Shown: positions 1 to 44,340 of the stretch, one piece after another
How the letters are laid out: each line of letters begins with the position of its first letter
Position numbering within the stretch: the stretch's first letter is position 1
DNA from: Candidatus Firestoneibacteriota bacterium
GTDB lineage: Bacteria; Oederibacteriota; D2-FULL-39-29; JBBTED01
DNA length: 55,773 nt
Direction of reading: 5' to 3'
Assembly: GCA_038042445.1 (NCBI GenBank)
Contig: JBBTED010000087.1
Coordinates: forward strand, 1 to 55,773
Translations under genes and position numbers: made by a program
Notes under the pieces: generated by a model
What the model was told of the DNA's origin: nothing
The model's input: only the letters and a program-made list of their open reading frames with translations
The model's database searches: none

Positions 1-1698
1 GTTCAAAATCTTTTCGATTTCTTGGAGTGTAATTTTATTTCTTGATGAATTACTTTTCGAATCATAAGTATTATTATATGACACGACCAAATACTTCGCA
101 TCAATATCCTTTACCAATTCGGCAAATTTATTTTTAGCTTGGGTTCTACAATAATCACTCATATTTTCTGGCTCAGGTTTTAATGCTACTCCATATAATT
201 TCGGATTATCCCATTTAGTTAATGTCTCTAAAACATGGTAAAATCTACTATATTGTCTAGAGTTATAAGGTGGATCAATGTATGCAATATCTACTTTTAT
301 TTTTTTTACTAAAATGTTGGTATCCTCTCTAAAAATAGAAACATCTTTAACGCTAATAGGATCAATTGGTTTCATAAAAAAATCATCTTTTATAAAATCT
401 TTTTTAAAATAAGCATCGTAATGACCAACGGTATTAGCAATTCTATCAACAGCATACAGTAAAGAAGCAATAAGTATATAGTATTCTTTCTCAGTAAGAT
501 TGTTTTTGTTTTCTTCTATGTTCTCTCTGATAGAACCAATAATCTTTGATGAATTTTGACTGAAATATTTACCCCCAAAACACTTTGAAAAATAATTGTC
601 TTCCAAATCTTCACCGTAAATATTGTTGTAATTTTTAATAATATTATAAATTTTGTTTTGATTCCATTTACTATCACTAAAAAAAGCTTGATAAACTACA
701 TAATTAGAATAAAGAAAGTCATTTAATATGATTTTTTCAAAATGCCTTGATGCAATGGCAGACACAATTCCAGTTCCTGCAAACACATCAGCAAAAGAGC
801 TTCCTTCACATTCCTTCTTGATAATTGAAAAAATCCATTCAATTAGTTTATTTTTACTGCCAATATATCTACGATTCTGCAATTGAACATGATTTTTTTT
901 AACTTGTGGAATATAAAAGTAGTATTCTTTGATTGTTTCTGCACTTACCTCATAAGTTGGTTTTTTAATTTCTAATAAATTAAATAATGTTCCTTGTACG
1001 CCTTCAGCAACATAATCAACGGTTTCATTACGACCCTTCAAAGTTTCATAAAAGCTATAATTTCCATTCCTTGCGGTAATAATAAAATCTATAATAGAAA
1101 TTCCCATTATCTCGCCTGCTAGAACAATTTTTTCAATAATTGCACTATCTTTTTCGCTCGGAGTCGGATCTCCTGTTGGATGGTTATGTATTAAAATTAT
1201 ACTCGCGGAATTTAACTCAACAGCTGGATAAAAAATTTCTCTTGGGTGTAATAAACTTTTATCAAGTAATCCAATGCTAATTATTTCTTTTTTTATTAAA
1301 ACATTTCTTGCATTCAGGTATAAACAAACAAGATATTCTTTTTTCTTATCTTGTAAATCATAAGTAAGAGATAAAACATCTTTTGAATTTTTAATAACAA
1401 TATCAATTGTACGATTTTCTTCGTAAAATCTTTTTACTAAAAAAATTGCTGATACAATCTGCAACGCTTTTGCTTGTCCAATTCCTGAAACATTCAACAA
1501 ATCATCAATAGTTACATCCAAGAATTTTTTGCCAAATTTACTTATTATTTGTTGAGCAAGTTTTTGAACATTTTTTCCTTTAATCCCGCTTCCAAGCAAA
1601 ATGGCTAAAAGGTCGCTTTTGGAAAGTGCGTCAGGCCCCTTTTTCATAAATCTTTCTCTTGGACGATCTACTTTTGGAATGTCTTTTAATTTTGGCAT
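1..1698 (-). CDS. radC: RadC (HhH + JAB) fused to a D12/Dam-class N6-adenine DNA methyltransferase; runs off the left edge
   Basis: Missing from the ORF track; translated by hand from ATG at 1698. MPKLKDIPKVDRPRERF..LLAILLGSG..HPREIF..HNHPTGDPTPSEKD, then with no stop across the junction: NRRYIGSK..FADVFAGTG (motif I)..YIDPPYN (motif IV). Confidence 0.9.
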   Translation of the reverse strand, partial: MPKLKDIPKVDRPRERFMKKGPDALSKSDLLAILLGSGIKGKNVQKLAQQIISKFGKKFLDVTIDDLLNVSGIGQAKALQIVSAIFLVKRFYEENRTIDIVIKNSKDVLSLTYDLQDKKKEYLVCLYLNARNVLIKKEIISIGLLDKSLLHPREIFYPAVELNSASIILIHNHPTGDPTPSEKDSAIIEKIVLAGEIMGISIIDFIITARNGNYSFYETLKGRNETVDYVAEGVQGTLFNLLEIKKPTYEVSAETIKEYYFYIPQVKKNHVQLQNRRYIGSKNKLIEWIFSIIKKECEGSSFADVFAGTGIVSAIASRHFEKIILNDFLYSNYVVYQAFFSDSKWNQNKIYNIIKNYNNIYGEDLEDNYFSKCFGGKYFSQNSSKIIGSIRENIEENKNNLTEKEYYILIASLLYAVDRIANTVGHYDAYFKKDFIKDDFFMKPIDPISVKDVSIFREDTNILVKKIKVDIAYIDPPYNSRQYSRFYHVLETLTKWDNPKLYGVALKPEPENMSDYCRTQAKNKFAELVKDIDAKYLVVSYNNTYDSKSNSSRNKITLQEIEKILN

Positions 1699-1700
1699 AC

Positions 1701-1818
1701 TTAGTTTTTCATCACATCACCAATACTAATTCTCAAACCTTTAGAAATTATTCATAATCGTTTGAATTGAAAAATTAGTAATGGCATTTGTTTCAATCTT
1801 TGTAAACGTTGTGTATTT
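1701..1818 (-). pseudogene. Frameshifted remnant of an XRE-family HTH regulator
   Basis: Reads KYTTFTKIETNAITNFSIQTIM, then one extra base at ~1752, then IISKGLRISIGDVMKN*. This is the XRE C-terminal pattern; the stop lies 2 nt before the radC ATG. Confidence 0.6.
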
Positions 1819-1977
1819 GCAATCATCAATCTATCATAAATTAAAAACCGTTGTATTTATTATTACAATTGCCGAGCCCCTCACGGAACAAGCTTTCCGC
1901 ATTGGATCTACATTTTTATACTATCAAATAAAATGAACTCAATCAAATTAAATTTGGTTCTTCTAATTTTAATAGGT

Positions 1978-2038
1978 TCCCCCTCTTTTGGAAAAGAGGA
2001 CATGCCCTATATCGTATGGTATAGAGGTTAGGGGAAAT
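1978..2038. repeat. CCCCCT-hairpin repeat interrupted by a ~26-bp nested insert
   Basis: TCCCCCTCTTTTGGAAAAGAGG[ACATGCCCTATATCGTATGGTATAGA]GGTTAGGGGAAAT; the outer part matches the reverse complement of 20292-20327. Confidence 0.65.
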
Positions 2039-2073
2039 ATTACTGTAAATCCTCTAAATCCCTGAAAACCCAT

Positions 2074-3090
2074 TTATATTTCTTCCATTAATCTGGCTAC
2101 TTGTTCCGGTGATGGAAGTTCTTTTTTAAGATTTCCTGAAAGTTGTGTGGTCATCTTATACGTAGCAACGCCAATCGGTTTTTTTGATACACGCAATGCG
2201 TATTCCACAATAGTATGATCCTTATATTTACATAGGATAATACCTATAGATGGATTTTCATCTTTCATTTTTATCAAATCATCCAACGCAGCAAGATAAA
2301 ACTGCATTTTACCTGCATACTCAGGCTTGAACTCACCAACTTTTAATTCAATCGCTACAAGACATTTTAATCGCCGATGGTAAAGTAAAATATCGATAAA
2401 AAATTCTTTGCCACTGATTTCAAGCCGAAACTGATTTCCAACAAATGTAAATACTCCACCCATTTCAATTAAAAAGTGGTTGATTTTAGACATCAATGCT
2501 CGTTCTAATTCAAATTCGCTATGTTCTTCACCAAGTTCAAGAAAATCAAATATGTATTCATCTTTAACTGCCAATTTTGCCTGATTGCGAATTTTCTCAG
2601 GAAGAACTTTGCTAAAATTTGTTTGATTCAACATTGTTTTTTCATACGTTTTATTTTCTATCTGATGAATGAGAACATTCTTTGTCCATCCAAATTTGCG
2701 TGTCATACGGATATAAAATTCACGCTCAAGATTATTTTTACATTTTTCCATAATCACAATATTATGCGACCAACTGATTTCTCGCACCAATGGTGCGAGT
2801 TTTAAACTATTGTAATAATTCTCATAAAAAAGACGCATACGCCAAAGACTTGACACAGAAAATCCCTGCATTCCCGGAAATTCGTTTTGCAAATCTTTAG
2901 CCAGATTTTCTACCACTGCCTTACCCCAAGCATATTGATTTTGACGCTCAACAATCATCCTGCCAATATCCCAATAAAGCTCTATAAGTTCCTTATTTAC
3001 GGCTTTTAAAGCATTATATTGAGCATTACGTATTCTTTCTTTTATTTCGCCTAAAAATTCAATGTAATTGTTTTGCGCTATTTTCTTCAT
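2074..3090 (-). CDS. DUF1016 / YhcG PD-(D/E)XK nuclease family protein
   Basis: VNKELIELYWDIG, ISWSHN, KDEYIFDFL, FIDILLYH..AIELK, GKMQFYL, ENPSIGIILC. Confidence 0.9.
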   Translation of the reverse strand: MKKIAQNNYIEFLGEIKERIRNAQYNALKAVNKELIELYWDIGRMIVERQNQYAWGKAVVENLAKDLQNEFPGMQGFSVSSLWRMRLFYENYYNSLKLAPLVREISWSHNIVIMEKCKNNLEREFYIRMTRKFGWTKNVLIHQIENKTYEKTMLNQTNFSKVLPEKIRNQAKLAVKDEYIFDFLELGEEHSEFELERALMSKINHFLIEMGGVFTFVGNQFRLEISGKEFFIDILLYHRRLKCLVAIELKVGEFKPEYAGKMQFYLAALDDLIKMKDENPSIGIILCKYKDHTIVEYALRVSKKPIGVATYKMTTQLSGNLKKELPSPEQVARLMEEI

Positions 3091-17808: not shown

Positions 17809-20280
17809 CTAATTTATTTCTACTACTTTCATTACTTCGTCTCCATAGTGATTTATTACTTTTACGGCAATTTTACCTGTTTTTGGTTTTGGAAATGGTC
17901 TTGAGGATGTGGAATATAACTCTTCCCAAGCGGATTCATTAATATCTGTTTTAAGGGCTTTTTTAAGTTTTTCGTAGGGTTTATCGGCACCAAGAAAATA
18001 TGCATGGGTTACAAAAAAAGCATCTCCATTATAATTAGTGTCTATAAACCAAGCAGCAATGTCGTGTTCGGGATTGTCTGAACCACTCGAACGTATTTCA
18101 GATTTAACTGGGTCATACACATCTACACCTACAATTTCTACGATAATTCCATCTTTTGTTTCTTTTATTTTTAATTCAGGTTCGCCAAAAGCAAGAAATA
18201 AATTGCCTGAACCAGTCTTCTTCAGAAGATCTCCCATAGAAAGATCTGGATTAATTTTGACTTTCATAATTCGTACTCCGTTAATTTCCGAAGGCACAGA
18301 AAATGCTGAAGCATCAAAAGAAGTCGCAGTTACCACCAGAAGATTAGCAAATTTCTTTGCCACGACTGCCGCATCACGTATGAAATCATCGTCTATACTA
18401 CCAAATTCCGGGCCAATAGAAACAGCAGCTTTCTTCAAACCATCCTTTGTTTTATATTCACCAACAGCTTGCACTTCAGGACCACTTGGAATAATATCTA
18501 AATTAACAAATTCTACTCGTGCGCCTTTTTCACCTGTTTGCACTCCAGATTTAAGAAGATTTCCTATAACTATATCTACAAAACGTTCAGAAGAAAGCAT
18601 CTCCTGCGCATCAGAAACTCGATGTGGAGAAAGAGACTCAACAGTAAATGGTCCTGTTACGCGTACAATATTCTTATCCTCAAATGGCTGGTCGTAAAGT
18701 ACTTCTTGTTCTGCTGACTCGTCGTTTGCCAATGATTTTAAAGTAATATGTGGCACGATTTTACATTCAAAACCGTATCGCACATTGTCTTTCTCTTTGA
18801 GTTTGTAATATGAAAACTTGGCAGTCATCAGACGGATACGTGCCAAAGCAAGTGCCACACGTGAGGTATCAACCGTAATCCAACGTCTGCCCCATTGTTC
18901 AGCAACGAAAGCTGTTGTTCCAGAGCCGCAGGTCGGGTCAAGAACAAGATCTCCCGGATCAGTGGTCATTAAAATACACCTTTTTATTACTTCTGTTGAA
19001 GTTTGAACAACATAATCTTTGTCAGATTCCGACAATTGATTACTCCACATATTATTTAATGATATATATGAAAAATCATCAAAATATCTGATGTAATTAA
19101 AAGATTTATCATTTAGTTTTATTCTTCCTTTTTGATAAAGTTTGTTAAAACCTTCTTCTGTTGTTTTCCAACTACCCATTGCTGTTGTGTATGTTTTGCT
19201 GTTTATAATCACTACACCACCATTTCCCGATTGACTTTTCACATCACCATAATTGAAAATCTTTTCCCCAATTTTCAGTTTAGTCAAACTAATTTTTCCA
19301 TCATTTAAGAAACGTTTTTCATATTGCTTTATTGATATTACCTCATCATTGGTTAAAAGTATTTTGTGGCTGTTAGTTATATTATCATCTGTTTTCTCTT
19401 GATATAGTTGTCTATATTTAACTCGTTCTATATTTTTTGCATACCAAAGAATATAATCACCACATTTATCCAGTAATTTCTGTCCTAATCCGCTTGTTGT
19501 CTTAAACATAATTAGACTCGCAAAATTACTGTTACCAAATACTTCATCCATAATATTCCTAACCAAATGCACATTCTCATCACTAATTTGCACAAAACAC
19601 GAACCACTTTCTGTTAATAATTCTCGTGCAGTAATTAAACGGTCGCGTAAATAAGAAAGATAAGAATGAATACCCAATTCCCATGTGTCGCGAAAAGCTT
19701 TCACTTGTTCCGGCTGGCGGATAAAATCTTCTAATTTATTGTCTTTAACCTTAGGTTTGCGTGTAGAAACCTGCCAATTAGAGCCAAACTTAATTCCATA
19801 AGGCGGGTCAATGTAGATGGTCTGCACTTTGCCACGCATTCCTTCTTTTTCCAACAAGCTGTTCATCACAAGCAAACTATCACCAAGAATCATTCTGTTT
19901 TGCCAATTATCTTCGTGCTTGTAAAATTCAACTGCCTTGCCAAATTGCTCTTGTGCTGTTTCTCCAAAAAGAAGCATCTGCGAAGTTTCATTCGTACCGG
20001 CTTTAAGTCGAGCAATTATTGCTTCAGGTGCAATTTTTTCCTGAACATAAATTGGGACTGAAGCAACTTCGAATTCCACACCCGCTTCTTTTTTGCCTGA
20101 CCAGATAAGTTGTGGATCAAGAGACGGATCATACTCGTATTTTTTCTTCACTGGCTGTTTTTCACGTGCAGAAAGTTTAACTGATTCTTCTTGTGTAGGA
20201 ATACGAACACGTTTATCCTCGTGCTTATACGAAGCAACTGGCGCAGCATCTGTTGGAGCTTGTATTTTCTTTTTTCGCAT
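17809..20280 (-). CDS. mod: Type III R-M methyltransferase (beta-class m6A)
   Basis: NRMILGDSL, YIDPPYG (motif IV) before VLDPTCGSGTT (motif I); AT-richer central TRD; C-terminal IAVKVINHYGDEV. Confidence 0.88.
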   Translation of the reverse strand: MRKKKIQAPTDAAPVASYKHEDKRVRIPTQEESVKLSAREKQPVKKKYEYDPSLDPQLIWSGKKEAGVEFEVASVPIYVQEKIAPEAIIARLKAGTNETSQMLLFGETAQEQFGKAVEFYKHEDNWQNRMILGDSLLVMNSLLEKEGMRGKVQTIYIDPPYGIKFGSNWQVSTRKPKVKDNKLEDFIRQPEQVKAFRDTWELGIHSYLSYLRDRLITARELLTESGSCFVQISDENVHLVRNIMDEVFGNSNFASLIMFKTTSGLGQKLLDKCGDYILWYAKNIERVKYRQLYQEKTDDNITNSHKILLTNDEVISIKQYEKRFLNDGKISLTKLKIGEKIFNYGDVKSQSGNGGVVIINSKTYTTAMGSWKTTEEGFNKLYQKGRIKLNDKSFNYIRYFDDFSYISLNNMWSNQLSESDKDYVVQTSTEVIKRCILMTTDPGDLVLDPTCGSGTTAFVAEQWGRRWITVDTSRVALALARIRLMTAKFSYYKLKEKDNVRYGFECKIVPHITLKSLANDESAEQEVLYDQPFEDKNIVRVTGPFTVESLSPHRVSDAQEMLSSERFVDIVIGNLLKSGVQTGEKGARVEFVNLDIIPSGPEVQAVGEYKTKDGLKKAAVSIGPEFGSIDDDFIRDAAVVAKKFANLLVVTATSFDASAFSVPSEINGVRIMKVKINPDLSMGDLLKKTGSGNLFLAFGEPELKIKETKDGIIVEIVGVDVYDPVKSEIRSSGSDNPEHDIAAWFIDTNYNGDAFFVTHAYFLGADKPYEKLKKALKTDINESAWEELYSTSSRPFPKPKTGKIAVKVINHYGDEVMKVVEIN

Positions 20281-20291
20281 AATAATTTATA

Positions 20292-20327
20292 AAATCTCCC
20301 CTAACCCCTCTTTTTCAAAGAGGGGGA
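20292..20327. repeat. CCCCT-hairpin repeat between res and mod
   Basis: AAATCTCCCCTAACCCCTCTTTTTCAAAGAGGGGGA. Confidence 0.65.
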
Positions 20328-20374
20328 CTAAAATTCCAGAAGAACCTAATTTACTTTAATGTATACTATATTGC

Positions 20375-20413
20375 ATTTTAGTATATATTGTAAACTCCGA
20401 TATATACTAAAAT
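20375..20413. promoter_or_regulatory. Perfect 14-bp inverted repeat over the res stop codon
   Basis: ATTTTAGTATATAT-(11 nt)-ATATATACTAAAAT. Confidence 0.45.
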
Positions 20414-23352
20414 TTAAGAACTTCATGAATTAGATTTTGCGTCTCGTGAATATCCTGTATTTCGAGAATTGCCCATTTCCCAAATTTATTCATATTATTT
20501 ACAGCTGGAATCCACATTTCACGTGCAGTTTTTACTTTCATTGTTTTTTTGTCATCTTTTTTACCTGTAACTTCAATAATAAGACTTAAAATAGATTTGT
20601 CTGGCATTTCAGTTTTAACAATAAAATCAGGAAGATAATGATGCGATACTCCCTGATGTTCATAAGGAATAGTAAATCCTAAATTCTGGTTTTTAACATA
20701 CGTCAACACCTCAGGCATTTGCTCCAATCTTTTGGCAACACCTTGTTCCCATTCTTCTGTATCTGCTACCATATAATTCACATGACTTTTTACGGTTTCC
20801 TGCACATCTTTAGTAGTTAAAAAATCAACATAACGAGTAGAACCAATCGTATCATACGGAGCAAGAATTGGTAAAAGTTTTTTATCTTTTTGATTTTTGA
20901 TGTTCTCAATTACAACTGCCTGCTGAATTTTGGTAAGAGCTCCTGAAAAATATTCTCCCACTGAAAGATAGCCTATTACCATACGGTCTTTCAATACCAC
21001 ATAGTTTTTAACATATTCTTCTGCAATCCGTTTAAGTTGTGGAAAAAGCCAATATTTTTCCGAACCGTCGGCATCAGTGTAATAACGTTTCAGAAGTGCT
21101 TGTGTAAGACGCACAACTACTTCGCCCTCACGACGTTCTTTTATCTTTACCATTTTCTCTTTTTCTTCTTTACCAATCACTCCACTCAGAATTATCTCAG
21201 TGGGTTCGTTTTCTATTATTGTTTTAGATTCTTCGGTAAATTTTGCTGTAAGTTTATCTTCTTTTAGTTCATAACGATATCCTTCAACACGTGGATAAGT
21301 AATTTCATATTGTTCACGTTCAGGTAATGCGTGAACACGATGGAAAACTTTCGGCGGTTGAGGTGAAATGTCACCCTCTGCTTTTAAGAAGTTAAACGGA
21401 ACACCATACACCTCTGCGTATTCAGGTGTCATAAAACCAGTTGATTTGTCAACACTGTAATCAATACGTCTTAATGCTCTACCTACAACCTGTTCACAAA
21501 GCAGTTGAGTAGAAAAAGCCCTAACACCTAATATATGGGTAACAGTATTTACATCCCACCCTTCTGTAAGCATAGAAACTGAAACAACGCATTTGATATT
21601 TTCACCAAGTTTACCTTGTTTGCCTACTGTATTCATAACTTCACGTAACAATTCTTCATCTGTTGGTTCTGTTCTACCCTGGAAACGACGACGATATTCT
21701 TTGTGAAAATCGTCTATTTCTTTGGCAAAAATTCTTTTAAACTCATCACTTATTTTCTCTCCACTTTCAATTTGAGCACTATCAATAAGCAAAGTATTTG
21801 GACGGTCAAAAAAACGCACACCATCTTCATTACGAAATATTTCTATATTGCCTTTCTCAATTTTAATCTTACCGTTTGGAGTCTCAACCTCATACCCTGC
21901 TATCCAACGATACACCAATTCTGAAACTGTAGTATTGTTGCATACCACAATCATTACAGGAGGCATCACTGCTGGATTATTTTTCTTTTGGGTTTCGTAT
22001 TCGCGATAGTATCGTTCATAACTACCATAAAGAGATTCCAAAGCTTCTTGCAATTTTGTTGGTAAATTTAATACTGAAAGATTATAATCCCCTGTTTTTA
22101 ATCCTTTTTTCGGAAGATTCTCGCGAACATAAAGCCATAGATTACGAAACTCAGGTTCATCATCTTTAGAAATAGTATCTGATTCAATTGGCAAACGAGG
22201 AATCTTTACAATACCACACTCCAAAGCATCTAAAAGAGAAAAATCGTAAAGTGTCCAGGGGAATAAGGTGCCTTCTTGATAACCAGAGCCACGCAAAAAA
22301 TATGGAGTAGCAGAAAGATCTATAATTCCATTTATGCCAATTTTTTTAGAAAATGATTCTAACCCACTAATCCAAACACGAGCTGCCCTGTTATTTTCAT
22401 CTGCCTCTTTTCTATCTTCACCAGACAATTTCTCTGTAACAGGTTTTTCACGATAACAATGGTGAGCTTCATCATTAATAACTAAAACACGTGGTTTATT
22501 GAGAATACTTTTAAATACCCTGTTTATCATTGTATTAGCTGTTTCTTTTACCGCCTCATCTTTAATTATACCAGATGCTTTCATAACTGCTCCAACTTGG
22601 AAACGAGAATTTTGACGTAATTCTAATTGATGAAAATTTGTTATAAAAACAACTGCTTGTTGAATAAGTTCAAAATCCTGATGTGAAACAACCCCATGCT
22701 TTAAATAATAGTTATTAGGATCATTTGGCAATAAAACATTAAGACGATCGCGAATAGTAATACCGGGAGTGATAACAACAAAAGCATCGGTAAAACGAAT
22801 GTCTTGCGGATAATGAATTTTGTTTAACGTGTGATAAGCAATAATCATTGCCATCACCACAGTTTTTCCAGAACCTGTGGCCATTTTAAAAGCTAATCTA
22901 TACAAAACAGGATTTGCATCTAAATTTGCTTTTTTGAGTTCATTGAGTATCCAATTTTCTCCAGATTTTTCTGCAATTTCATTAACATACATTAGTGTTT
23001 CAAGAGCTTCTATCTGGCAGAAAAATAATTTGTTCTCCCTGGTTTCATCATTCCAATAAAAAAGTAGATTCCGAGATATCTTCGTTAATCCTTGGTAACC
23101 ATTTTTGCGCCACTCGTTAATTTTAACACGGACTTTATTAATAAATTCGTTTTCTTTCTGAAGTTCAGTACCAAAAGCACCTTCAGCAATATTCAAATCT
23201 AATTGCTTCTGTTTAGCCTTTGCTCGCGGAACAGGAATATAAAAACTACTAGGCCTTCTATATTCAAGAATATGATTTGTTATCCCTTTTTCATCCGATT
23301 TAAAATGTTTGCATGGTTCTTTATATGGTGAATTAAGTATTGGATTATTCAT
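20407..23352 (-). CDS. res: Type III restriction endonuclease/helicase subunit
   Basis: PILNSPY, FFCQIEA, KMATGSGKT, INDEAHH, LSATP, MLTEGWD, EQVVGRALRR; C-terminal nuclease YLPDF..IIEVTG. Confidence 0.88.
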   Translation of the reverse strand: MNNPILNSPYKEPCKHFKSDEKGITNHILEYRRPSSFYIPVPRAKAKQKQLDLNIAEGAFGTELQKENEFINKVRVKINEWRKNGYQGLTKISRNLLFYWNDETRENKLFFCQIEALETLMYVNEIAEKSGENWILNELKKANLDANPVLYRLAFKMATGSGKTVVMAMIIAYHTLNKIHYPQDIRFTDAFVVITPGITIRDRLNVLLPNDPNNYYLKHGVVSHQDFELIQQAVVFITNFHQLELRQNSRFQVGAVMKASGIIKDEAVKETANTMINRVFKSILNKPRVLVINDEAHHCYREKPVTEKLSGEDRKEADENNRAARVWISGLESFSKKIGINGIIDLSATPYFLRGSGYQEGTLFPWTLYDFSLLDALECGIVKIPRLPIESDTISKDDEPEFRNLWLYVRENLPKKGLKTGDYNLSVLNLPTKLQEALESLYGSYERYYREYETQKKNNPAVMPPVMIVVCNNTTVSELVYRWIAGYEVETPNGKIKIEKGNIEIFRNEDGVRFFDRPNTLLIDSAQIESGEKISDEFKRIFAKEIDDFHKEYRRRFQGRTEPTDEELLREVMNTVGKQGKLGENIKCVVSVSMLTEGWDVNTVTHILGVRAFSTQLLCEQVVGRALRRIDYSVDKSTGFMTPEYAEVYGVPFNFLKAEGDISPQPPKVFHRVHALPEREQYEITYPRVEGYRYELKEDKLTAKFTEESKTIIENEPTEIILSGVIGKEEKEKMVKIKERREGEVVVRLTQALLKRYYTDADGSEKYWLFPQLKRIAEEYVKNYVVLKDRMVIGYLSVGEYFSGALTKIQQAVVIENIKNQKDKKLLPILAPYDTIGSTRYVDFLTTKDVQETVKSHVNYMVADTEEWEQGVAKRLEQMPEVLTYVKNQNLGFTIPYEHQGVSHHYLPDFIVKTEMPDKSILSLIIEVTGKKDDKKTMKVKTAREMWIPAVNNMNKFGKWAILEIQDIHETQNLIHEVLKF

Positions 23353-23523: not shown

Positions 23524-24303
23524 TCACAAATCACGGGCTAGGGTTAAGACATTGACTTCTTTGGCGCCTGACTCTGTTAGGACTCTGGCGCATTCGTTTA
23601 TTGTGGCGCCTGTTGTCATAATATCGTCTATTAAAAGAATTGATTTGTCTGTAATATTGTTTTTTGTAGTATCAACTATGAATGCATCTTTTATATTCTC
23701 AAATCTTTCATTTCGTTTTAAGCCTACTTGCGATTGTGTTTGTTTTGATCTTTTTAAGATATTCTTGTGCATAGGTAGATTAAATTTGTCTTTCAAAAAA
23801 CTTGCAAGTATCTCAGATTGATTATAATCCCGTTCTTGTAATCTGGATTTATGAAGAGGCACTGGAATAATTATATCAATATCTACCATAATATTTTCTC
23901 TTTGTGCATAATTTACCAAAATTTCTCCAAAATGTTTGCCAAGACTTCTTTTGTTTTTATATTTAAACAAATGAATTGCTTCACGTAAAACACCTTCATA
24001 AATTCCTGCAGAACGTGCACATTTAAAATAGAATGTGTTTTTGCTTTGTTTACATTCCAAGCAAAAATCAGATTGTTTCGTTTTTGCCGATGAATCGGCA
24101 ACTACATCACCCGCAATGACAGGTGCGAGAGAGTTTCTAAATGCATTAAACGGTTTGCCGCAACGTTTACATACAGGTGGAAAAATAAATTTAATCTGAT
24201 TCCAGCATTCTGCACATAAGCAGGAATATCTACTTTTTTCTAATGGCTTATCACAAACTTTGCAATTAACAGGAAAAATTATATCAAAAATTTCCCGAAT
24301 CAT
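23524..24303 (-). CDS. comF: ComF family protein (double zinc ribbon + PRTase)
   Basis: CKVC..CAEC..CKRCG..CLEC; IPVPLH..R..ER.YNQ; LLIDDIMTTGAT. Confidence 0.9.
   Translation of the reverse strand: MIREIFDIIFPVNCKVCDKPLEKSRYSCLCAECWNQIKFIFPPVCKRCGKPFNAFRNSLAPVIAGDVVADSSAKTKQSDFCLECKQSKNTFYFKCARSAGIYEGVLREAIHLFKYKNKRSLGKHFGEILVNYAQRENIMVDIDIIIPVPLHKSRLQERDYNQSEILASFLKDKFNLPMHKNILKRSKQTQSQVGLKRNERFENIKDAFIVDTTKNNITDKSILLIDDIMTTGATINECARVLTESGAKEVNVLTLARDL
24070..24121 (-). repeat. Composite palindromic repeat in frame inside comF
   Basis: Minus strand TGTCATTGCG..[TGTAGTTGCCGATTCATCGGCA]..CGAAACAATCT, encoding VIAGDVVADSSAKTKQS. Confidence 0.7.
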
Positions 24304-24816
24304 TTAAGCCCATTTTTCATAACATATTATCTCCTCAAGATTTTTCCTTGAAGTAGGAACAGGTTGATGTGCAGGATACCCAATAGGCAATAAAACAACA
24401 ACTGCTACAGCATCTGGTATTTGAAGTATTTTTTTAACATCTGGTTCATTAAATGAACCTATCCAACAAGTTCCAAGCCCTTCTTCTACTGCTTTTAAAG
24501 TCATATGGTCTATTGCAATTGCTAAATCTATAGGACAGGTAAATTGTCCACCACGCATTTTTCTTGTTGGATTTGTACCACAAGCAATAATAACAACAGG
24601 TGCCTCGCCAATAAAATTTTGATTTCTGGCTGCAGCTGCTAATTCTTTACGTGTATTTTTATCGTGCACAACTATAAATTTTAAGTCTTGCTTATTTGAA
24701 GCAGATGGAGATAATCTTGCTGCATTCAAAACTAATTTTAGTTTTTCTTCTTCTACATCTTTATCTTTATATGCCCTTATACTTCTTCTGCTTTCTATTG
24801 CTTCCATTACGGTCAT
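24304..24816 (-). CDS. Nitroreductase family protein
   Basis: AIESRRSIRAY, AARLSPSASNKQ, GLGTCWIG, LPIGYP. Confidence 0.92.
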   Translation of the reverse strand: MTVMEAIESRRSIRAYKDKDVEEEKLKLVLNAARLSPSASNKQDLKFIVVHDKNTRKELAAAARNQNFIGEAPVVIIACGTNPTRKMRGGQFTCPIDLAIAIDHMTLKAVEEGLGTCWIGSFNEPDVKKILQIPDAVAVVVLLPIGYPAHQPVPTSRKNLEEIICYEKWA

Positions 24817-24880: not shown

Positions 24881-27800
24881 TTAAAATGTTGCGTTTACTT
24901 TCACAAGTGCATTATAAGATTGATAATTGCTTCCTATTTTTAAACGATCATTGAATACATTATAAGTAAAATCAAAATTCATTCTTATATTTTTGGCAAA
25001 ATTATATTCCAAACCAATTCCTGCATTATATGATTCAGTTGAAACATTACTAGTAGCATTATTACCTGTATTTCGTGTTATTGTAACACTAAATTTGTAA
25101 TTAAATCTCATTGCTTGCTCTATTCTAAATTCACCGCCACCTAAAAACCATTTTGGTAATTTTAATGGATGGTCAAAAGATATTGTATGATAAAATTCTA
25201 TTGATGGCGTATAATTTTTGTTTTTGAATATATTACTTCCTTCTTCTTTATCCTCAAAATTAGCAGTAAATCCTAATGTTCCATTAAAATTATCATAAGG
25301 TTTAAATGGCAATGCAAATTTACCGTTATTACTGTATGATACAGAACTTACTGCATCTTTTGCATCCTTTCTGATAATTCTTTTCCAATCGTATCCCAAA
25401 TTAACAGCACTAGGATTTAACCAACTTCTAAAAAAAGGAGGTTCATCCAATACAAAATCACTTCCTGCTGAAACAACATTTGTCTTTGTAACTTGTTGAG
25501 GCGCACTCATATTTCTTTCATTACTTGTACTTCCTCTTGGAGTAAATGTCATTTTTGAAAATATTTTAAAACGCGAGTTAAGAGAATCCGTAATAATCTG
25601 TGAAGCTATTTGTGCTATGTCTTCTCTTGGCCAGGCAAGCCATATATCAAGAAACCTTAATTTTTCATAAGTAGTTGGTTCCTTCGAATCTTTAGGCTTT
25701 GTATATTCAGCGTATACAGCATTACCCGTTACTCTATGTGAATAATTTATAGTTGGAGATGACTCTTCAAGTGCATTCCACCATTCTGCAAACCTTAATT
25801 CTCCTGCACCTTCTAAGGAACTATCTGGGCGTAATTCATCACGTGGAAAATCACGACTAACTTTTCCTGCAAATGTACCTTTTGGCGTAATACCTGGTAT
25901 ACCTGAATAAATAAGTGTTAATCCCGCCCCATGGTCAAGCGCCTGTGGTTCAAAATTTTCTGAAAAAGGTGAAGATTCTAAAGATGGATTATATGCATAT
26001 AGATTTCCTCTTTTATCTAAAAACCTGTAACTATAGTTTGGACTAAAAGTCAACTTTGAAAATGGCTCATATCCACCTGTATATTTATAATTTTGCTCAC
26101 GTGACACACTATAAGTATCTCGATTTTTCTGTTCAACATGCTTACTTGCGTCTTCAGTATATCTGAATTGCGCATCAAAATCATTTTTCCCAAGAAATTC
26201 AAGGGCATAAGTTACTTTTGGTGCCAATCCATAAGAAGTATTAAACGTATCATCCAAAGTTGTAGGCCTTTGTGGTAGATAATATAAACTTTCACGTTTA
26301 TAATTACCATCAACATTTAAATTAAAAGGACTTAAGTATAAAAAACCAAGTGTGCCATTATAATTGTCTGCAAGTTTATCTGGATATGAAAAATAATTTG
26401 GATCAATTTTGTCCGGTTCATCAGTTAATAACTGTTCTCTTCCCCAACCAAGTGTCATAGGCAAAAAATCAATCGGCTTAACAGCAGATGTAATACCAAG
26501 ATTTCTTGTTGTCTGACGCACACTCAAATAAGTTTGCGTAGAAGCTAATGCCTGATTTGTACTTGAGTCTTCAAATAATTTAAACCTGCTGTCAACCTGG
26601 CGATAATTTGAATCAACAGACAATACATCTCCAAAACTTATACCACCTGATACTCTACGTGCCAACCCATTCATACTTTCCATATCTGTTACCCGCAAGT
26701 TATTCACCCATATTTCACCATTACTTCCACCACTTAGGACACCAATAGATATTTTCATAACATTATTTATATATGGTGTTCCAACTGTTTTTCTTATTCC
26801 AGAAGAACCATCTAATGTTAAAACTACTGTTTGCCAATCAGCTTCAACTTTATCAAGTGAATATTCATATTGATAGTAATTATTATCATCAGCGCCTAAT
26901 CTCACAAATATAGTGTCACCTGCAAAGGTATTTCTTTTAAAAACATCAAATCTTAAGGAATTGTATTCTACATAACTTTGTGGACGCATAAATGTTCTGT
27001 AAGCATAAAACTGTTCGTCACTATTAGAATAAGTAATGTCTAATGATTGTTCACGTCTACGTTCAGTTTCTGTTTCAACTCTATAAAAAGTACCTGTACC
27101 TGCTAATGGCTGATAATTCGGGTCAATATCATAACTTATACTTCTAACATTAAAACGTTCAGGTTTAGTCTCATCTTTTAATTCCCATTTATTTCCGCTT
27201 ACTTGTATGGACTCAATTGTAACTTTACCGGATAATTTGTTTTCATTCTTCAAAGCCAATCTTATGTGTTTTATCAATGATCTATCAGATGGTAATACGG
27301 CTCCTGTAGCACTTCCATCAGACAAAGGAATCTTTATAAGCTTCCACTCGCCCAAATCAGAAGCAATATATTTTGGATTAATAGATGCAGTATTAAATGA
27401 ATATCTGTAATAGCTATCTGTAACATCCAATTTTCCATTATTATCCATATCTTCTGTATCAAAACGATTATTATTTGCTCCAACTATTTTGTCTTCACCT
27501 GCAAAATTCATATTTAAACCAGTATCTTCCCCTGGATTTAATGATCCATCATTATTTTTATCTTCTGTATCAAGTAAACTATTTCCATTTATATCTTCAC
27601 TTATCACACCTAAATCAATATTAACATCTACAGATTTATTCCAGTCAGCCTTCATCCAAACTTCCAGAAATTTATATCTTGTATAATCCTGTCCACTTGT
27701 TGAAATCGAGTAACGTATAGCATCCCAAGTTCCATAAGCAAAATTGTATTCTATGTTAAATAACTGACGTCTTACTGCTCTTTCACTTAAATCATGACCA

Positions 27801-30052
27801 TAATCTTCCTCATTATATATATAAATTTGACCTGTCCTGTTTGTTCGCTCTATTCCAACCCCTGAAGGCTGACTTGCAGGAAACCAGCTATAATCAGCAT
27901 TTGCCATAGAAACTATGTTATCTGTTCCTTCCATTGAATCTACCATTGCAACAGCTTTCTCTCCATTATCAGGATCATAAGTGTTAGGATTATATGTACT
28001 TTTTGCAATTTCACCTGAAAACCTTAATTCTGTAGGAGCAATTGCATCAGGCAAAGGGAAAATCGTCTGAATATCATCCTTATCAAATTTAATTTTTGCA
28101 TCACCATCAACAATATTTAAACTTGTAGGTGTCGCTCCAATATTTGGAACTTCAAGTGGCTGCTGACCTCCACTATAAAGATATGTTGACCCAAATGAAA
28201 TGTTTTCAGTAAAATCATACGTACCACGAATTCCAAAAATATTACTCTGCACACCAGCGCCAAATGGAGTATATTCATAAGTTATTGTTATTTCTGTCTT
28301 ATCCGTTATTTTGTCTTCATTAAAAAACAGCAAAAATCCTGACTCATAATCTACTGTATAATCTACATCACGCATAAGCAATTTCCCATCCATTGTTACT
28401 TTTTCACTTTTTTTCACAATATTAAAATCAGGTAGATTATAAGTCCTGAATTTATATTTATATTCAATATGTATTTTATACTTGGAAATAATATTATTTA
28501 TTGTATAGGCATCCGGATCATCTGCATCAAATGGTTTATTTTTATAAAATTTTAATATGCCAAAATCTATATCTATTGTATAAGGATAATTTGCAACATC
28601 CATTTCCTGGTTATTAGCTAAACTAGATATTTTTAATTGAAAATCAGGGTCGTATTCTTTTGGCAATATTTTTTTGTTACCAAGATAATAATAATTCTGC
28701 AATTGGTGAGACGTATCTTTTGTATCTTTTTGAATAACATGAGTAGTTATATTATCACTAAAATCAAATGTTCCATCAGACAAATATCCCACTTGCCCAC
28801 CTGCATATTTATAACCAACAACTATAACATAGTTTGAACTTATAGATTTATTAAAAGTAATTGTTCCTGTATTGTAATCAATAGTATAATCTGTGCCGGG
28901 ATGGAAATAATTAAATGAATACAAACCTGCCGTTGATGTTTTCTGAGTATACAAAGTTGGATCAGTTCCTCTGCCAAAAGGTGGATAATTATTATCCAAT
29001 CCATTTTGGTTGTCCACCCAAACTTGCTCAGAACCAGCAGTTATTGGCAAATGAGAAGAATCCATATAAATTGTATAATACTTATTTTTCACATAACTTA
29101 TATCCTGAATATCTGTTTTTACCTGTGTATATCCTCCTTTAAATGCAACTGTTTTAGCTTTACCTTTTGTCTGCGCGCCTATAGCAGTTAACCCAAATTT
29201 TTTGTATTTTGCTCTAATTTCTGCACCAAAAATCTCTTTATTGTAACCTGTAAATTCTGTATTAGGCAAAGTAAGAGTAACATCTCCGAATTTGGCTTCT
29301 TGTATTAATTCTTCTTCCTTACCTTTATATGAAACCCCAATATCTCTCTGTTGTTCTTTAGTATCATCATAATCAACATTCACAGTAACACGTTTTCCAA
29401 CATTCCCGGACAATCGCACCTGCAATTCCTGTTCTAAAGCAAATCCGCCGGCAACAGGAGGAGCAGCAGCAGAAGAAGGAGCTGCTCCTCCTGGACCTCC
29501 TGTTGGCCTATCTGCAGAATAATTTGTTTGCCCATATTTTAAAGTAACTCCTTTTCTACCGGATATTTCAAGCCGTGATTCTAATGGCAAAGTTAAGCCC
29601 AGAATTCCTGATTCAGGAGGTGCAGGTGCTAATGCAGGAGTTAAAGCATAAGCCCCTGGTTTTGTTAATATTTCAGATGGAAGTGGTAAAATTGCTCTTT
29701 CTTTTCCTTTTGAACCAGAAACTCCTATTTTTATTGCAGGTTCCTCTTCTAAAATTGGACGCATCTTCAAACCTGGTCTATTTACAGATACTTTATCTGT
29801 AAAAACCACATCACTTGATATATCCTGCCCAATTTTTTCCGGCAGTAATAAATTAGGAATAGTAGTTTGCCCTGATAAAAATTCTGTTCTCGCCTTTTTA
29901 ATACTTCCAGTATTCCCTTCGGTCACTATTTTATCTGAAGGCTGTATTTGTTCCTTAAATCTAGAAGTTGAAAATGTAAAACTTGGCATAAGAAACAACA
30001 CAACGAAGTGGCAAGTTATTGCTATAAGCAAAATAAGTAAAGTTTTTTTCAT
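24881..30052 (-). CDS. Giant outer-membrane beta-barrel protein, SprA (T9SS translocon)-like
   Basis: Probable start MKKTLLILL at 30052 (signal peptide; upstream gene stops at 30055). Blocks resemble SprA: EQELQVRLSGNVG..VDYDD..YKGKEEELIQEAKFGDVTLTL and DYTVDYESG..ITYE..FG.R..Y.F. Also Asp-rich DxNxNGxLD loops, an amphipathic beta-rich C-terminal half, and a terminal Phe. Confidence 0.7.
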   Translation of the reverse strand: MKKTLLILLIAITCHFVVLFLMPSFTFSTSRFKEQIQPSDKIVTEGNTGSIKKARTEFLSGQTTIPNLLLPEKIGQDISSDVVFTDKVSVNRPGLKMRPILEEEPAIKIGVSGSKGKERAILPLPSEILTKPGAYALTPALAPAPPESGILGLTLPLESRLEISGRKGVTLKYGQTNYSADRPTGGPGGAAPSSAAAPPVAGGFALEQELQVRLSGNVGKRVTVNVDYDDTKEQQRDIGVSYKGKEEELIQEAKFGDVTLTLPNTEFTGYNKEIFGAEIRAKYKKFGLTAIGAQTKGKAKTVAFKGGYTQVKTDIQDISYVKNKYYTIYMDSSHLPITAGSEQVWVDNQNGLDNNYPPFGRGTDPTLYTQKTSTAGLYSFNYFHPGTDYTIDYNTGTITFNKSISSNYVIVVGYKYAGGQVGYLSDGTFDFSDNITTHVIQKDTKDTSHQLQNYYYLGNKKILPKEYDPDFQLKISSLANNQEMDVANYPYTIDIDFGILKFYKNKPFDADDPDAYTINNIISKYKIHIEYKYKFRTYNLPDFNIVKKSEKVTMDGKLLMRDVDYTVDYESGFLLFFNEDKITDKTEITITYEYTPFGAGVQSNIFGIRGTYDFTENISFGSTYLYSGGQQPLEVPNIGATPTSLNIVDGDAKIKFDKDDIQTIFPLPDAIAPTELRFSGEIAKSTYNPNTYDPDNGEKAVAMVDSMEGTDNIVSMANADYSWFPASQPSGVGIERTNRTGQIYIYNEEDYGHDLSERAVRRQLFNIEYNFAYGTWDAIRYSISTSGQDYTRYKFLEVWMKADWNKSVDVNIDLGVISEDINGNSLLDTEDKNNDGSLNPGEDTGLNMNFAGEDKIVGANNNRFDTEDMDNNGKLDVTDSYYRYSFNTASINPKYIASDLGEWKLIKIPLSDGSATGAVLPSDRSLIKHIRLALKNENKLSGKVTIESIQVSGNKWELKDETKPERFNVRSISYDIDPNYQPLAGTGTFYRVETETERRREQSLDITYSNSDEQFYAYRTFMRPQSYVEYNSLRFDVFKRNTFAGDTIFVRLGADDNNYYQYEYSLDKVEADWQTVVLTLDGSSGIRKTVGTPYINNVMKISIGVLSGGSNGEIWVNNLRVTDMESMNGLARRVSGGISFGDVLSVDSNYRQVDSRFKLFEDSSTNQALASTQTYLSVRQTTRNLGITSAVKPIDFLPMTLGWGREQLLTDEPDKIDPNYFSYPDKLADNYNGTLGFLYLSPFNLNVDGNYKRESLYYLPQRPTTLDDTFNTSYGLAPKVTYALEFLGKNDFDAQFRYTEDASKHVEQKNRDTYSVSREQNYKYTGGYEPFSKLTFSPNYSYRFLDKRGNLYAYNPSLESSPFSENFEPQALDHGAGLTLIYSGIPGITPKGTFAGKVSRDFPRDELRPDSSLEGAGELRFAEWWNALEESSPTINYSHRVTGNAVYAEYTKPKDSKEPTTYEKLRFLDIWLAWPREDIAQIASQIITDSLNSRFKIFSKMTFTPRGSTSNERNMSAPQQVTKTNVVSAGSDFVLDEPPFFRSWLNPSAVNLGYDWKRIIRKDAKDAVSSVSYSNNGKFALPFKPYDNFNGTLGFTANFEDKEEGSNIFKNKNYTPSIEFYHTISFDHPLKLPKWFLGGGEFRIEQAMRFNYKFSVTITRNTGNNATSNVSTESYNAGIGLEYNFAKNIRMNFDFTYNVFNDRLKIGSNYQSYNALVKVNATF

Positions 30053-30054
30053 AG

Positions 30055-31746
30055 TTATAATTCCATTTGCAAAAGATTTCTCATCCCAAGTTTCATTGGT
30101 ATATAACAAGTCAGAATACTAACAAATATTATCAACACAAAAATAAACCCCACATATCCAACATCAAATAAACTAAATGAAATCTTGTGCATATAATACA
30201 TTCTTACAGGTCCGGATTCTAATATTAGTATTAAAGTTATATATAGAATACTTGTAACCATATATAATAATCCCCCAAAACTTGTTGCTATTTCAGCAGG
30301 ATTATCAACATAAAATTTTGGATACATAGATCCAAGCCCAATACCAAGCGCAGTTAAAGTTATACTAAAAAGAAAAACTGTCCACAGTGAGATAATAGCC
30401 ATAAAAATATCTATTTTCATCAAATATACAGAACACAAAATCAAAACTTCTGCTAACACAAATAATATAAAAAAATTAATCCAGAATTTTTCCAGTAGAA
30501 ATTTTTTTACTGTAATTGGAGCTAATCTTACTAACCAATAACTTTTACCTTCCATACTTACTGATGAAAAAACAAATCTGGCACCAACAGCAGCTATAAT
30601 AAAACCAGAAAACCCCATATTCAAAAAGAAAATTAAATCTTTTAAGTATTTTGAATAAATATTTATAGGGAGTTTATCTAAAGGCAATGTGTGCATATTA
30701 AAAAGATAAATTATAACTATAGAAAAGAGTAAAAGAAGCTGTGGCCATTGCGTAGGATCTCTTCTGAAAATTTTTATATCTTTTACTAATAACACACGAG
30801 TAACTGAAGGCAAGAAATTAAATATTTTATCCCAATTTATTCTCTCAAGAAATGTGTTTTTTATTTTCACTTCATGTGTTTCCTGAGCATTACACCATGC
30901 AGGATAATAATTTTTTTTTGCAACTAATAATAGCATAAATACTACCATTATTGCACTACCCCACAATATACTATAGTAATAATAAAACTGTCCCCATTTC
31001 CTGTATAATGCAAAAATTGCTGCCTGAGATGCCCAATAACTTGGTAAATAAGGAGCAGTTGGGGCTTTTAATTCTGCAATATATTGCATAACCTCAACTA
31101 TCTCACTGGGATTTACAAGACGTTCCGGCTGAAGCAAACGAAATAAAACAACAACTATGCAAACAAAACCTATGGAAAGCAAAACAAATATATCTCTTGT
31201 TCTACGTGCTGGAAAAATACGCATTAAAAAAATAGTAAAAAACAATGCAATTGCTGTTGCTATTAAAAGAAATGGTATAAATATGGTAACTGCAACAGGA
31301 TAAAATATAAACTCTGCCTTACATACCATACCATAAGCTACAAATATAGGAATAGACATTATCAATATCATCCATGAACTATTAATAAGAGTTTCTAATC
31401 CCTTCATAGTAAAAGGAACGGACACAGGTATAGGATTTGCCATTAACAAATTAAGGTCTTCAGAAAGATATAACGTTGATATAGAAACTACTACATTTGA
31501 AAAAAGCAACATTGTAAAAAATGTTAGAAAAACCATTGATAACAATTTTGCGATTAAAATAGGACCAAAAAGTGGAACCTGATTAAAATAGGTAAGTATT
31601 CTAAAGAAGACAAAATTTATACTTGCAAGAAAAAAAAATCCCAATACAAAAAATAAAAAATATTTTAATAAACCGGATTTCGTGCTTTTTTTTGTAGAGT
31701 GAAACAGTATTCTCAAACGTGTATTTATAACAATCCATAATTTCAT
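30055..31746 (-). CDS. Putative ABC transporter permease (large polytopic)
   Basis: Many TM segments; LYLSEDLNLL..P, KDIKIFRRD, SMEGKSYW; coupled to the upstream ATPase. Confidence 0.8.
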   Translation of the reverse strand: MKLWIVINTRLRILFHSTKKSTKSGLLKYFLFFVLGFFFLASINFVFFRILTYFNQVPLFGPILIAKLLSMVFLTFFTMLLFSNVVVSISTLYLSEDLNLLMANPIPVSVPFTMKGLETLINSSWMILIMSIPIFVAYGMVCKAEFIFYPVAVTIFIPFLLIATAIALFFTIFLMRIFPARRTRDIFVLLSIGFVCIVVVLFRLLQPERLVNPSEIVEVMQYIAELKAPTAPYLPSYWASQAAIFALYRKWGQFYYYYSILWGSAIMVVFMLLLVAKKNYYPAWCNAQETHEVKIKNTFLERINWDKIFNFLPSVTRVLLVKDIKIFRRDPTQWPQLLLLFSIVIIYLFNMHTLPLDKLPINIYSKYLKDLIFFLNMGFSGFIIAAVGARFVFSSVSMEGKSYWLVRLAPITVKKFLLEKFWINFFILFVLAEVLILCSVYLMKIDIFMAIISLWTVFLFSITLTALGIGLGSMYPKFYVDNPAEIATSFGGLLYMVTSILYITLILILESGPVRMYYMHKISFSLFDVGYVGFIFVLIIFVSILTCYIPMKLGMRNLLQMEL

Positions 31747-32498
31747 ATAACTTTAATTATTTCTGTTAAATCAGTTGCACCTGTAAGTTTTAAAAAAATG
31801 TCTTCCAAATCTTTTTCCGTTGTTTTTGAAAGCATTCGTAATTCTTCCATCGTGCCCAGTGCTATTAATTTACCGTTTTGTATTATTCCAATACGGTTAC
31901 ATAATTTTTCAACTAATTCCAAACTATGAGTAGATACAAACAAAGTTATTCCACTTTTTGCTAAATTCTGGAATATACTTTTAACTAATCTTGCACTCTT
32001 TGGGTCTAATCCAACCATTGGCTCATCAATTATCAACACTTTTGGATTATGTAAAAGCGAAGCAATCATAACAACTTTTTGTTTCATTCCATGAGAATAT
32101 GCTTCAATAAGCTCATCACCCCAATCCTTGAGTTCGAATAATTCTAAAAATTCTTCAATTCGCAAACTTGTAGCTTTGTTATTTATTCCATACATCCCGG
32201 CTATGAAATTTAAAAATTCTCTACCAGTAAGTTTTTCATAAACAAATGGCCTATCTGGTATAAATCCGATTATTTTCTTTGCAGCAATTGGATCAATTTG
32301 TATATCGTATCCATCAATTAATACCTTGCCTTCATTTGGAATTAAAAGACCAGTCAGCATTTTTATAGTAGTAGTTTTACCTGCACCATTTGGCCCTAAA
32401 AATCCAAACATCTCTCCACTTTCAACACAAAGATCCAAATGGTCTACTGCCACTACTTTACCAAATTTTTTTGTAAGCCCAATTGTCTGTATCATCAA
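31743..32498 (-). CDS. ABC transporter ATP-binding protein
   Basis: GPNGAGKTT, YSHGMKQK, IIDEP, STH. Confidence 0.92.
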   Translation of the reverse strand: MMIQTIGLTKKFGKVVAVDHLDLCVESGEMFGFLGPNGAGKTTTIKMLTGLLIPNEGKVLIDGYDIQIDPIAAKKIIGFIPDRPFVYEKLTGREFLNFIAGMYGINNKATSLRIEEFLELFELKDWGDELIEAYSHGMKQKVVMIASLLHNPKVLIIDEPMVGLDPKSARLVKSIFQNLAKSGITLFVSTHSLELVEKLCNRIGIIQNGKLIALGTMEELRMLSKTTEKDLEDIFLKLTGATDLTEIIKVI

Positions 32499-38971: not shown

Positions 38972-38977
38972 TTTTAA

Positions 38978-43578: not shown

Positions 43579-44340
43579 TTATACTCCGCTTAGCTGACGA
43601 TTAAGCTCTCTCTCAAGCATAGCAGAAAAAGATTTTACAATTTGATGTTGATCCATAGGTAAAAAAGCTCCTAGTTCTCTCCGAAAATCAATATTTTTTG
43701 CATCTGCCAATATGTTGTTCTTGACTTCGGATAGTTTCTTTTTTTGTTCATTGGAAATCATACCTTTTCGCATCATAAAATAAAGATCATAAAAATCCCG
43801 TGGTTTTTTGCGCTCAAGTAATGCTCCAAAAATTTTTTCTTCCACAATTTCTTTTTGTGGCAAATGAATAATTGTATAGGTGGGCACAAAATTGTTAGCG
43901 ACACTATCTACTTCACCTCTAATATTCTGACTCTTACGAAATGATACATTTATTTCTACGCTAACTGGTGGATGTTCAAACATGTCAAAAGTTGCAACAC
44001 CAAAATATCCACCGCTTGTAGCACCAATTTTATCTCCAAGTTTAACCTTTATATCAGAACGTTCCATTTCTACCAAAACATGAACAAAAAGTCCCTCAAC
44101 AAATGATTTAACCTCATTTTGTGCAACACCAAAAATAGAAAAGTCCAAATCTTCGGAAAAACGCGGGCTATCATATACAATACGTAGTGCCGTTCCGCCC
44201 TTAAAAAGTAATTTTCCGGTATCTGGTAATTTATATAATTCTAATAAAAAAATATGCTGAAAATATTCCCTGACAATATTCGGAAATACTTCCATTTGGT
44301 ATTGTCTACTTAATTTTTCAAGTGTTTCTATTGATATCAT
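43579..44340 (-). CDS. abiEii: AbiEii-family nucleotidyltransferase toxin (type IV TA)
   Basis: FKGGTALR..RFSEDLDF; EK..ALL.R..PRDFYDL. Confidence 0.88.
   Translation of the reverse strand: MISIETLEKLSRQYQMEVFPNIVREYFQHIFLLELYKLPDTGKLLFKGGTALRIVYDSPRFSEDLDFSIFGVAQNEVKSFVEGLFVHVLVEMERSDIKVKLGDKIGATSGGYFGVATFDMFEHPPVSVEINVSFRKSQNIRGEVDSVANNFVPTYTIIHLPQKEIVEEKIFGALLERKKPRDFYDLYFMMRKGMISNEQKKKLSEVKNNILADAKNIDFRRELGAFLPMDQHQIVKSFSAMLERELNRQLSGV

Follow-up and report, generated by a model that had tools for sequence, protein, structure and literature searches.

We identified in the window, the whole 55,773-nucleotide stretch of DNA analysed here, a gene for a compact outer-membrane translocon of the SprA family, and we consider it likely that this protein exports CTD-tagged proteins by way of PorV-family carriers and does so without a GldKLMN motor. 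Judging from the arrangement of the genes, the carrier used most often is likely the one encoded beside the cargo. Among the traits of a canonical T9SS, carrier barrels and CTD cargo were found, whereas GldK and PorU were not, and the best reading is that of a T9SS-like system that should not be filed as a canonical T9SS.

The gene occupies positions 24881..30052 of the window on the reverse strand and encodes 1,723 aa ending in VKVNATF, with Phe as the terminal residue. Its ATG follows the TAA stop of an ABC permease gene after 2 nt, and an in-frame TTG 19 codons 5' of this ATG overlaps the end of the permease gene. The sole hydrophobic stretch of the protein is its N-terminus, which by hydropathy fits a signal peptide; residues 1 to about 28 (29969..30052) are thus likely a Sec signal peptide with a putative cleavage site at their end. 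This is followed by a Pro-rich extension (residues 29-159; 29576..29968) that is presumably periplasmic and lies mostly outside the modelled range. Two conserved Asp-rich loops that align to SprA (residues 828-876; 27425..27571) start at D831 and D868, their key acidic residues being 84-98% conserved in a 63-row alignment, and from the sequence we infer that they may bind calcium. Translation, hydropathy and alignment therefore bear out the initial annotation, which had described an ORF of ~1,723 aa with an N-terminal signal-like segment, Asp loops and a terminal Phe. It was also right about the neighbours: an ABC ATPase and the ABC_tran_2 permease (PF16949) lie upstream (30055..32498) and are probably co-transcribed with the gene, and a nitroreductase (24304..24816) and then a ComF-type protein (23524..24303) are encoded downstream, all on the reverse strand. 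Promoter and terminator scans at the locus returned 52 sites, compared to 54 in shuffles.

The 1,723-aa ORF was confirmed as a full-length SprA homologue. It matched TIGR04189 (SprA/Sov) with 226 bits (E 5.4e-67), above the cut-off of 200 and below the 1,956-2,544 bits of Bacteroidota-type proteins. Pfam SprA_N did not match the protein, nor did phmmer with the single sequence find a match in the PDB, and homologues are annotated as hypothetical because these searches miss the link to SprA. A profile of 105 homologues, however, had SprA as its sole match in the PDB sequence set (E 1.7e-46), along three colinear stretches (SprA 149-545, 589-894 and 1005-1796). The Atlas clusters matched contain proteins of 1,623-1,843 aa, and two of these clusters carry SprA_N on 12-20% of their members. 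Weak matches to phage tail models were also observed within residues 526-595 (28268-28477 of the window), namely to the tail tube model NF052337 (E 2.2e-6) and to DUF2460. Phage tail models likewise match two distant SprA homologues, and an inserted domain of SprA may share its fold with phage tail proteins.

The chain was modelled with AlphaFold as two overlapping halves, with the barrel never closed: residues 150-760 (72 alignment rows, pLDDT 79.9, pTM 0.60) and residues 596-1723 (63 rows, pLDDT 84.6, pTM 0.57). Each of the four structure searches placed the four SprA entries at its head, so that the SprA-like character first noted from the sequence is corroborated by both half-models as well as by TIGR04189. 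The model of residues 596-1723 matched 8GL8 chain A with a Foldseek E of 2.4e-44 and a TMq of 0.59, and VIA aligned 1,043 of its residues to SprA (Z 20.3, rmsd 9.2), with model residues 1..1128 falling on 749..2401. For the N-terminal model, SprA was again the best match (E 1.8e-25); the alignment, which begins at residue 155 (SprA 131), gave a Z of 16.9 and an rmsd of 20 over 419 residues against SprA 131-845, and an rmsd of this size fits misplaced domains in the half-model. Residues 150-709 were also predicted as a complex with a lone PorV-family barrel (G000:C96:11671-12627); the score was 0.12 and the mark 0.32, which speaks neither for nor against binding.

The barrel of SprA has 36 strands. 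By DSSP, the two half-models together contain 7 long strands at residues 160-295 (29168..29575), 4 at residues 603-688 (27989..28246, delimited identically in the two models) and 25 at residues 1127-1721 (24884..26674, together with the terminal Phe), for a predicted total of 36. Strands 3 and 4 have 8 residues each; the predicted strands keep a consistent up/down parity, and short turns alternate with long loops as a membrane barrel requires. Between the barrel segments lie a first inserted beta domain, presumably extracellular (residues 296-602; 28247..29167; model and profile), and a cap region (residues 689-1126; 26675..27988) with a CBM11-like jelly-roll fold (VIA Z 13.3, rmsd 2.9 and 152 aligned residues against 6r31). 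Since the predicted barrel keeps 36 strands, the 680 missing residues would come from loops and inserted domains; the compact SprA is thus predicted to have trimmed its loops and cap and kept its pore. The idea of a shorter translocon, put forward in the initial annotation, holds for the chain but not for the predicted barrel.

Compared with the Bacteroidota SprA/Sov proteins (F. johnsoniae; PDB 6H3I, 6H3J, 8GL6 and 8GL8), the protein is colinear from SprA residue 131 to 2401 and shares with them the three barrel segments, the two inserted domains, the predicted 36 strands, an N-terminal extension, a terminal Phe and a single copy. Its extension takes the position equivalent to the N-terminus of SprA that is bound by SkpA, according to the available part of one report (PMC10994853). 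It is 1,723 aa long versus 2,403 aa for F. johnsoniae SprA, and its residues 596-1723 (1,128 aa) cover SprA 749-2401 (1,653 aa). The differences are an identity of 12-19% in the structural alignments, a branch shared with Elusimicrobiota homologues, a host outside FCB, and lptFG and comF as neighbours.

That the host groups with Candidatus Firestonebacteria, outside FCB, is supported by several observations. The closest homologues in five of five loci belong to this candidate phylum (42-50% identity), and same-class genomes give the highest scores, the gene being present in 41 of 41 genomes of that search. In the accessible text of two studies, Firestonebacteria are placed beside Goldbacteria and Elusimicrobia (PMC7031533) or grouped with PVC (PMC12057145), in both cases not in FCB, and the early impression of a host outside Bacteroidota is thus supported. 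The profile detected the gene in 92 of 99 phylum genomes and in 58 of the 60 good ones. Of the 92, 88 have a single match and the other four a pair of partial ones; in the host genome, which is 90% complete, the 1,723-aa protein is the only SprA homologue. A FastTree phylogeny of 58 chosen SprA-family proteins (1,077 columns, midpoint root) placed the protein within its class (100) inside the phylum clade (100), which adjoins a clade holding Elusimicrobiota-labelled proteins (100). Both clades are set apart (100) from nine Bacteroidota-type proteins and four proteins of 2,270-2,310 aa. The tree follows taxonomy, a pattern that is consistent with vertical descent and makes recent acquisition from Bacteroidota less likely. 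An ancestral system is compatible with this midpoint-rooted tree, which lacks an independent root. At E<=1e-30 the N-part profile matched 1,073 representatives, a number that rose to 4,392 with the threshold relaxed to E<=0.001. The phylum-level homologues L021, L023-L026, P0028, P0042, P0045 and P0065 are longer, at 1,900-2,300 aa; several have fn3 domains that are apparently N-terminal, and the next gene is not comF but a co-oriented gene for a secreted protein, a candidate partner or handle.

Although no PorV or Gld family was matched among the 37 window proteins scanned, just as had been noted from the sequence, cargo and carriers are abundant elsewhere in the host genome. The CTD model TIGR04183 had 19 matches above cut-off and PF19572 had seven; HMMs built from the genome itself recovered 28 PorV-family barrels and 27 CTD ORFs, of which 26, two of them fragments, have the domain at or near the C-terminus. 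Six of seven barrels tested exceeded the cut-off of NF033709, and none of the seven reached the PorV or PorQ equivalog cut-off. All 24 CTD tails tested matched TIGR04183 at E<0.01, and two exceeded the cut-off of the type B model TIGR04131. By score, the tails are of type A, type B or FlgD-Ig, frequently of several kinds at once, and those scoring as type A have a basic residue near the C-terminus. Domains found in the 24 cargo proteins scanned were NHL, laminin-G, Ig, Kelch, fn3, PKD and peptidase. Several carriers end in LysM, TPR, CsgG-like or caspase domains. The PorV family (NF033709) is present in 60 of 60 good phylum genomes, with at least 7-30 matches each. B. thetaiotaomicron, which is not known to have a T9SS, was used as a control and is also matched by NF033709, so the family alone is no proof of a T9SS. 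Bacteroides spp. are likewise named as an exception lacking T9SS in the accessible text of one article (PMC11285876).

The genes for cargo and carriers are paired far beyond chance. An adjacent co-oriented barrel gene accompanies 17 of 26 CTD genes (mean 0.54 and maximum 4 in 2,000 shuffles) and a barrel gene lies within two genes of 20; nine of the 26 have no adjacent barrel. CTD similarity was correlated with carrier similarity over 18 pairs, comprising the 17 adjacent ones and one with a small gene between (rho 0.54; 0 of 5,000 permutations), and over 12 dereplicated pairs (rho 0.35; 10 of 5,000). In addition, the CTD tree and the carrier tree each unite the same ten pairs, those whose tails are type B-like, in a single group. 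At the level of the genes, this shows that the pairs are kept as units; co-duplication alone could give congruent trees without binding.

Some of these genes are unusual in their own right. A CTD cargo frame of at least 5,146 aa (G000:C112:19311-34751) is cut by the contig end, and Pfam matched nothing in the final 4,029 aa of this frame at E 1e-5; another giant open frame, also cut by a contig end, extends over at least 6,018 aa (G000:C163:1-18057). One tandem array contains six genes for CTD cargo and five for carriers within 28 kb (G000:C63:3561-31675), and one PorV-family barrel is fused to TIG and caspase (C14) domains (G000:C67:28786-31755; L125).

We also searched for the motor and attachment components of the T9SS. 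GldN was found in 0 of 99 phylum genomes, GldM in 0 of 13 and 0 of 46, and GldL in 0 of 6 genomes; these model searches were run without a positive control because no control genome has these genes. GldK is better tested, as the one component of the chain whose search had a working control. No protein in 46 phylum genomes scored above the GldK model's cut-off of 350, yet the model found unrelated FGE-sulfatase domains (49-76 bits, E 1e-13 to 1e-21) in 14 of the 46 and in two controls, and it returned nothing at E<=1e-12 in the remaining 32, one of which is a single contig. PorU-type C25 was absent from the host genome and from four same-class genomes searched, and C25/PorU was present in 7 of 46 phylum genomes and absent from 39. 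DUF6089, which we take to be PorG-like, was found in none of five genomes, likewise without a control. The genome search thus yielded the PorV-family barrels and CTD cargo that the initial annotation had asked about but not GldK-N, and its suggestion of a simplified T9SS-like export system is upheld by carriers and cargo encoded genome-wide with no Gld chain detected.

An ordinary T9SS whose energy chain (GldKLMN, SprE and PorG) has diverged beyond HMM detection is an unlikely explanation, though one with arguments in its favour. Divergent envelope proteins can escape detection in this phylum: SprA itself is just 12-19% identical to the F. johnsoniae protein, Pfam models miss LptD in most of the phylum, and the GldL, GldM and GldN searches were without a positive control. 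In addition, F. johnsoniae requires energy to extract the carrier-cargo pair, as stated in the accessible text of PMC10994853. However, GldK has a conserved FGE-sulfatase fold, and a model that detects even unrelated members of it still left 32 of 46 genomes empty; the four FGE proteins of the host differ from GldK in architecture and, by eye, have no evident lipobox. The DUF6089 result, although uncontrolled, may point the same way. Finally, 26 of 28 carriers have no cysteine in their last 40 residues, unlike SprF and PorG, which are reported to be disulfide-linked to GldK through cysteine tails (PMC12635249, in the part available).

The host genome does have motor genes, namely those for ExbBD-TonB together with a receptor, an isolated one of ExbB/TolQ type and those of an orphan MotA/MotB pair (G000:C72:55376-56930; L136), with no FliG match in the genome. 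Close orthologues of this pair (63-70%) were found only in G001, G005 and G015, which carry FliG_C-containing frames of 544-722 aa, one of them adjoining motA in G015; the pair is possibly a non-flagellar rotary module. As a general energiser it was rejected, as MotA was not found with the L136 query in 11 of 60 genomes, and the MotA-negative genomes include 98-100% complete ones with pore and carriers.

Gene neighbourhoods were compared over 101 homologue loci, a set in which some loci share a genome or come from closely related ones. By eye and BLAST, the recurrent neighbours are comF, lptFG and housekeeping genes, with no conserved motor-like gene among them. ComF is next 3' in 50 of 71 loci with 700 nt downstream, and lptF is found in 55 of 101 loci. 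Neither the nitroreductase nor a homologue of the ABC_tran_2 permease occurs in any of the 101, 67 of which have at least 1.5 kb upstream; 44 of these 67, same-class genomes among them, instead have lptF/lptG divergently upstream. In the host genome lptFG lie on another contig. Since the permease and the nitroreductase never recur and lptFG are usual, the ABC pair is best explained as a local rearrangement, and the nitroreductase as a local insertion outside the system. Of the order ABC-sprA-comF, only the comF part is therefore conserved.

The conservation of comF and the CBM11-like fold of the cap could be taken to mean that the pore mainly imports macromolecules, either DNA via comF or polysaccharide via the cap. 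This role, which had been offered as an option from the sequence, is very improbable: an exporter is required for the products of tens of CTD cargo and carrier genes, and the genome has a sole SprA homologue; the cap aligns with the same region of SprA by both profile and VIA; comF is not beside the gene in six phylum-level loci examined; and the genome has a separate TonB-dependent receptor with ExbBD-TonB. That the neighbouring ABC ATPase and permease energise the pore or work with it, as the 2-nt gap and the probable single transcript might suggest, was rejected as next to impossible given a permease in 0 of 101 loci and lptF/lptG in its place in 44 of 67. The chance that the barrel takes over LPS insertion from LptD, a role that would account for the lptFG neighbourhood and the failure of Pfam LptD models in most phylum genomes (13 of 60 matched, weakly, and 0 of 5 in another set), is just as negligible, as the genome encodes a 706-aa, very divergent LptD-like protein (G000:C48:24752-26872), which a profile built from six relatives matched at E 1.5e-60 and LptD_N matched weakly.

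For export of CTD cargo through the compact SprA, we propose the following steps. Cargo and carrier would cross the inner membrane by Sec, as their N-terminal hydrophobic segments suggest. By analogy with F. johnsoniae, the carrier would then dock at the barrel's putative lateral opening, and within the cavity its loops would be bound by the folded CTD. In F. johnsoniae, this binding inside the SprA cavity is reported to occur without energy, extraction of the pair to need energy, and release to require the motor and SprE/SkpA (PMC10994853, in the text accessible). Carrier and cargo would leave sideways and stay together, so that the cell surface would display the cargo in the manner of type B substrates, which are reported in the available parts of two papers to remain bound to their cognate carriers (PMC9143113; PMC12635249). 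Retention of the cargo at the surface is suggested because the genes are paired, because they co-diverge and because there is no PorU-type sortase. As for release, spontaneous exchange from a lower-affinity, loop-trimmed pore ranks first and may well be the mechanism. A pull on periplasmic tails by an ExbBD-TonB or TolQR-type motor, ranked second, is conceivable, and we weakly favour spontaneous exchange over it. A Gld-like chain diverged beyond detection ranks third and is rather doubtful.

The proposed system most resembles the type B route of the T9SS (SprB-SprF and PG1035-PorP; PMC9143113 and PMC12635249, in the parts available), with many carriers, cargo-carrier pairs, cargo expected to stay carrier-bound and no need for PorU. 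Unlike that route, its carriers score mostly as PorV/PorQ family rather than PorP/SprF, lack the cysteine tail for the GldK link and in several cases carry an additional periplasmic domain (LysM, TPR, CsgG-like or caspase), and its cargo tails are a mixture by score, type A and FlgD-Ig as well as type B, frequently more than one for a single tail. With the type A route (PorV as general carrier, PorU/PorQ/PorZ for attachment) it shares barrels of the PorV/PorQ family as well as tails that score as type A and have a basic residue near the C-terminus. It differs from that route in that no PorV/PorQ equivalog was found among 7 barrels tested, no C25/PorU is present in the host genome, and many paired carriers take the place of one general shuttle.

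Partial T9SS gene sets without Gld have been reported for some members of FCB, such as Rhodothermus. In the accessible text of reviews, T9SS is confined to FCB (PMC11205867, PMC9127263); a further article lists additional FCB phyla and states that the genes are absent from other phyla (PMC11285876), and TXSScan, as far as its text was available, reports T9SS in Bacteroidetes only (10.1101/031039). A phylum outside FCB with the pore, at least 7-30 carriers per genome and cargo contradicts the claimed absence (PMC11285876). No description of an SprA-type system in the Firestonebacteria or Elusimicrobiota lineage was found in the literature covered, largely open-access main text, and no paper naming Firestonebacteria, judged by title, was on secretion. 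A pore without a detectable Gld chain makes two published proposals testable, as worded in the parts of the sources available: that ejection requires energy (PMC10994853), and that the T9SS originated within the gliding machinery (PMC12635249). A natural minimal translocon would reveal the purpose of the motor and whether motor or translocon is the older. It is a tentative idea that SprA, carriers and CTD cargo were a self-sufficient export and display machine predating the gliding motor, inherited vertically in the Elusimicrobiota-Firestonebacteria-Goldbacteria lineage with each cargo served by its own carrier, and that the Gld chain came later; if true, this would reverse the published gliding-origin proposal. 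For these uncultured bacteria, the system is a probable route by which their large surface proteins are exported, and a SprA of 1,700 aa is a candidate for structural work.

Finally, several other genes of the window were recognized. The host had been called acsC-bearing, and an AcsC-type corrinoid Fe-S protein (FeS and CdhD-family) is indeed encoded next to a RACo activator at 37034-40315. The window also contains a GAF-GAF-ANTAR regulator (3330-4553), a type III restriction-modification pair (17809-23352), an AbiEi/AbiEii toxin-antitoxin pair (43579-44936) and a ribonucleotide reductase with a TSCPD domain (46657-48933).
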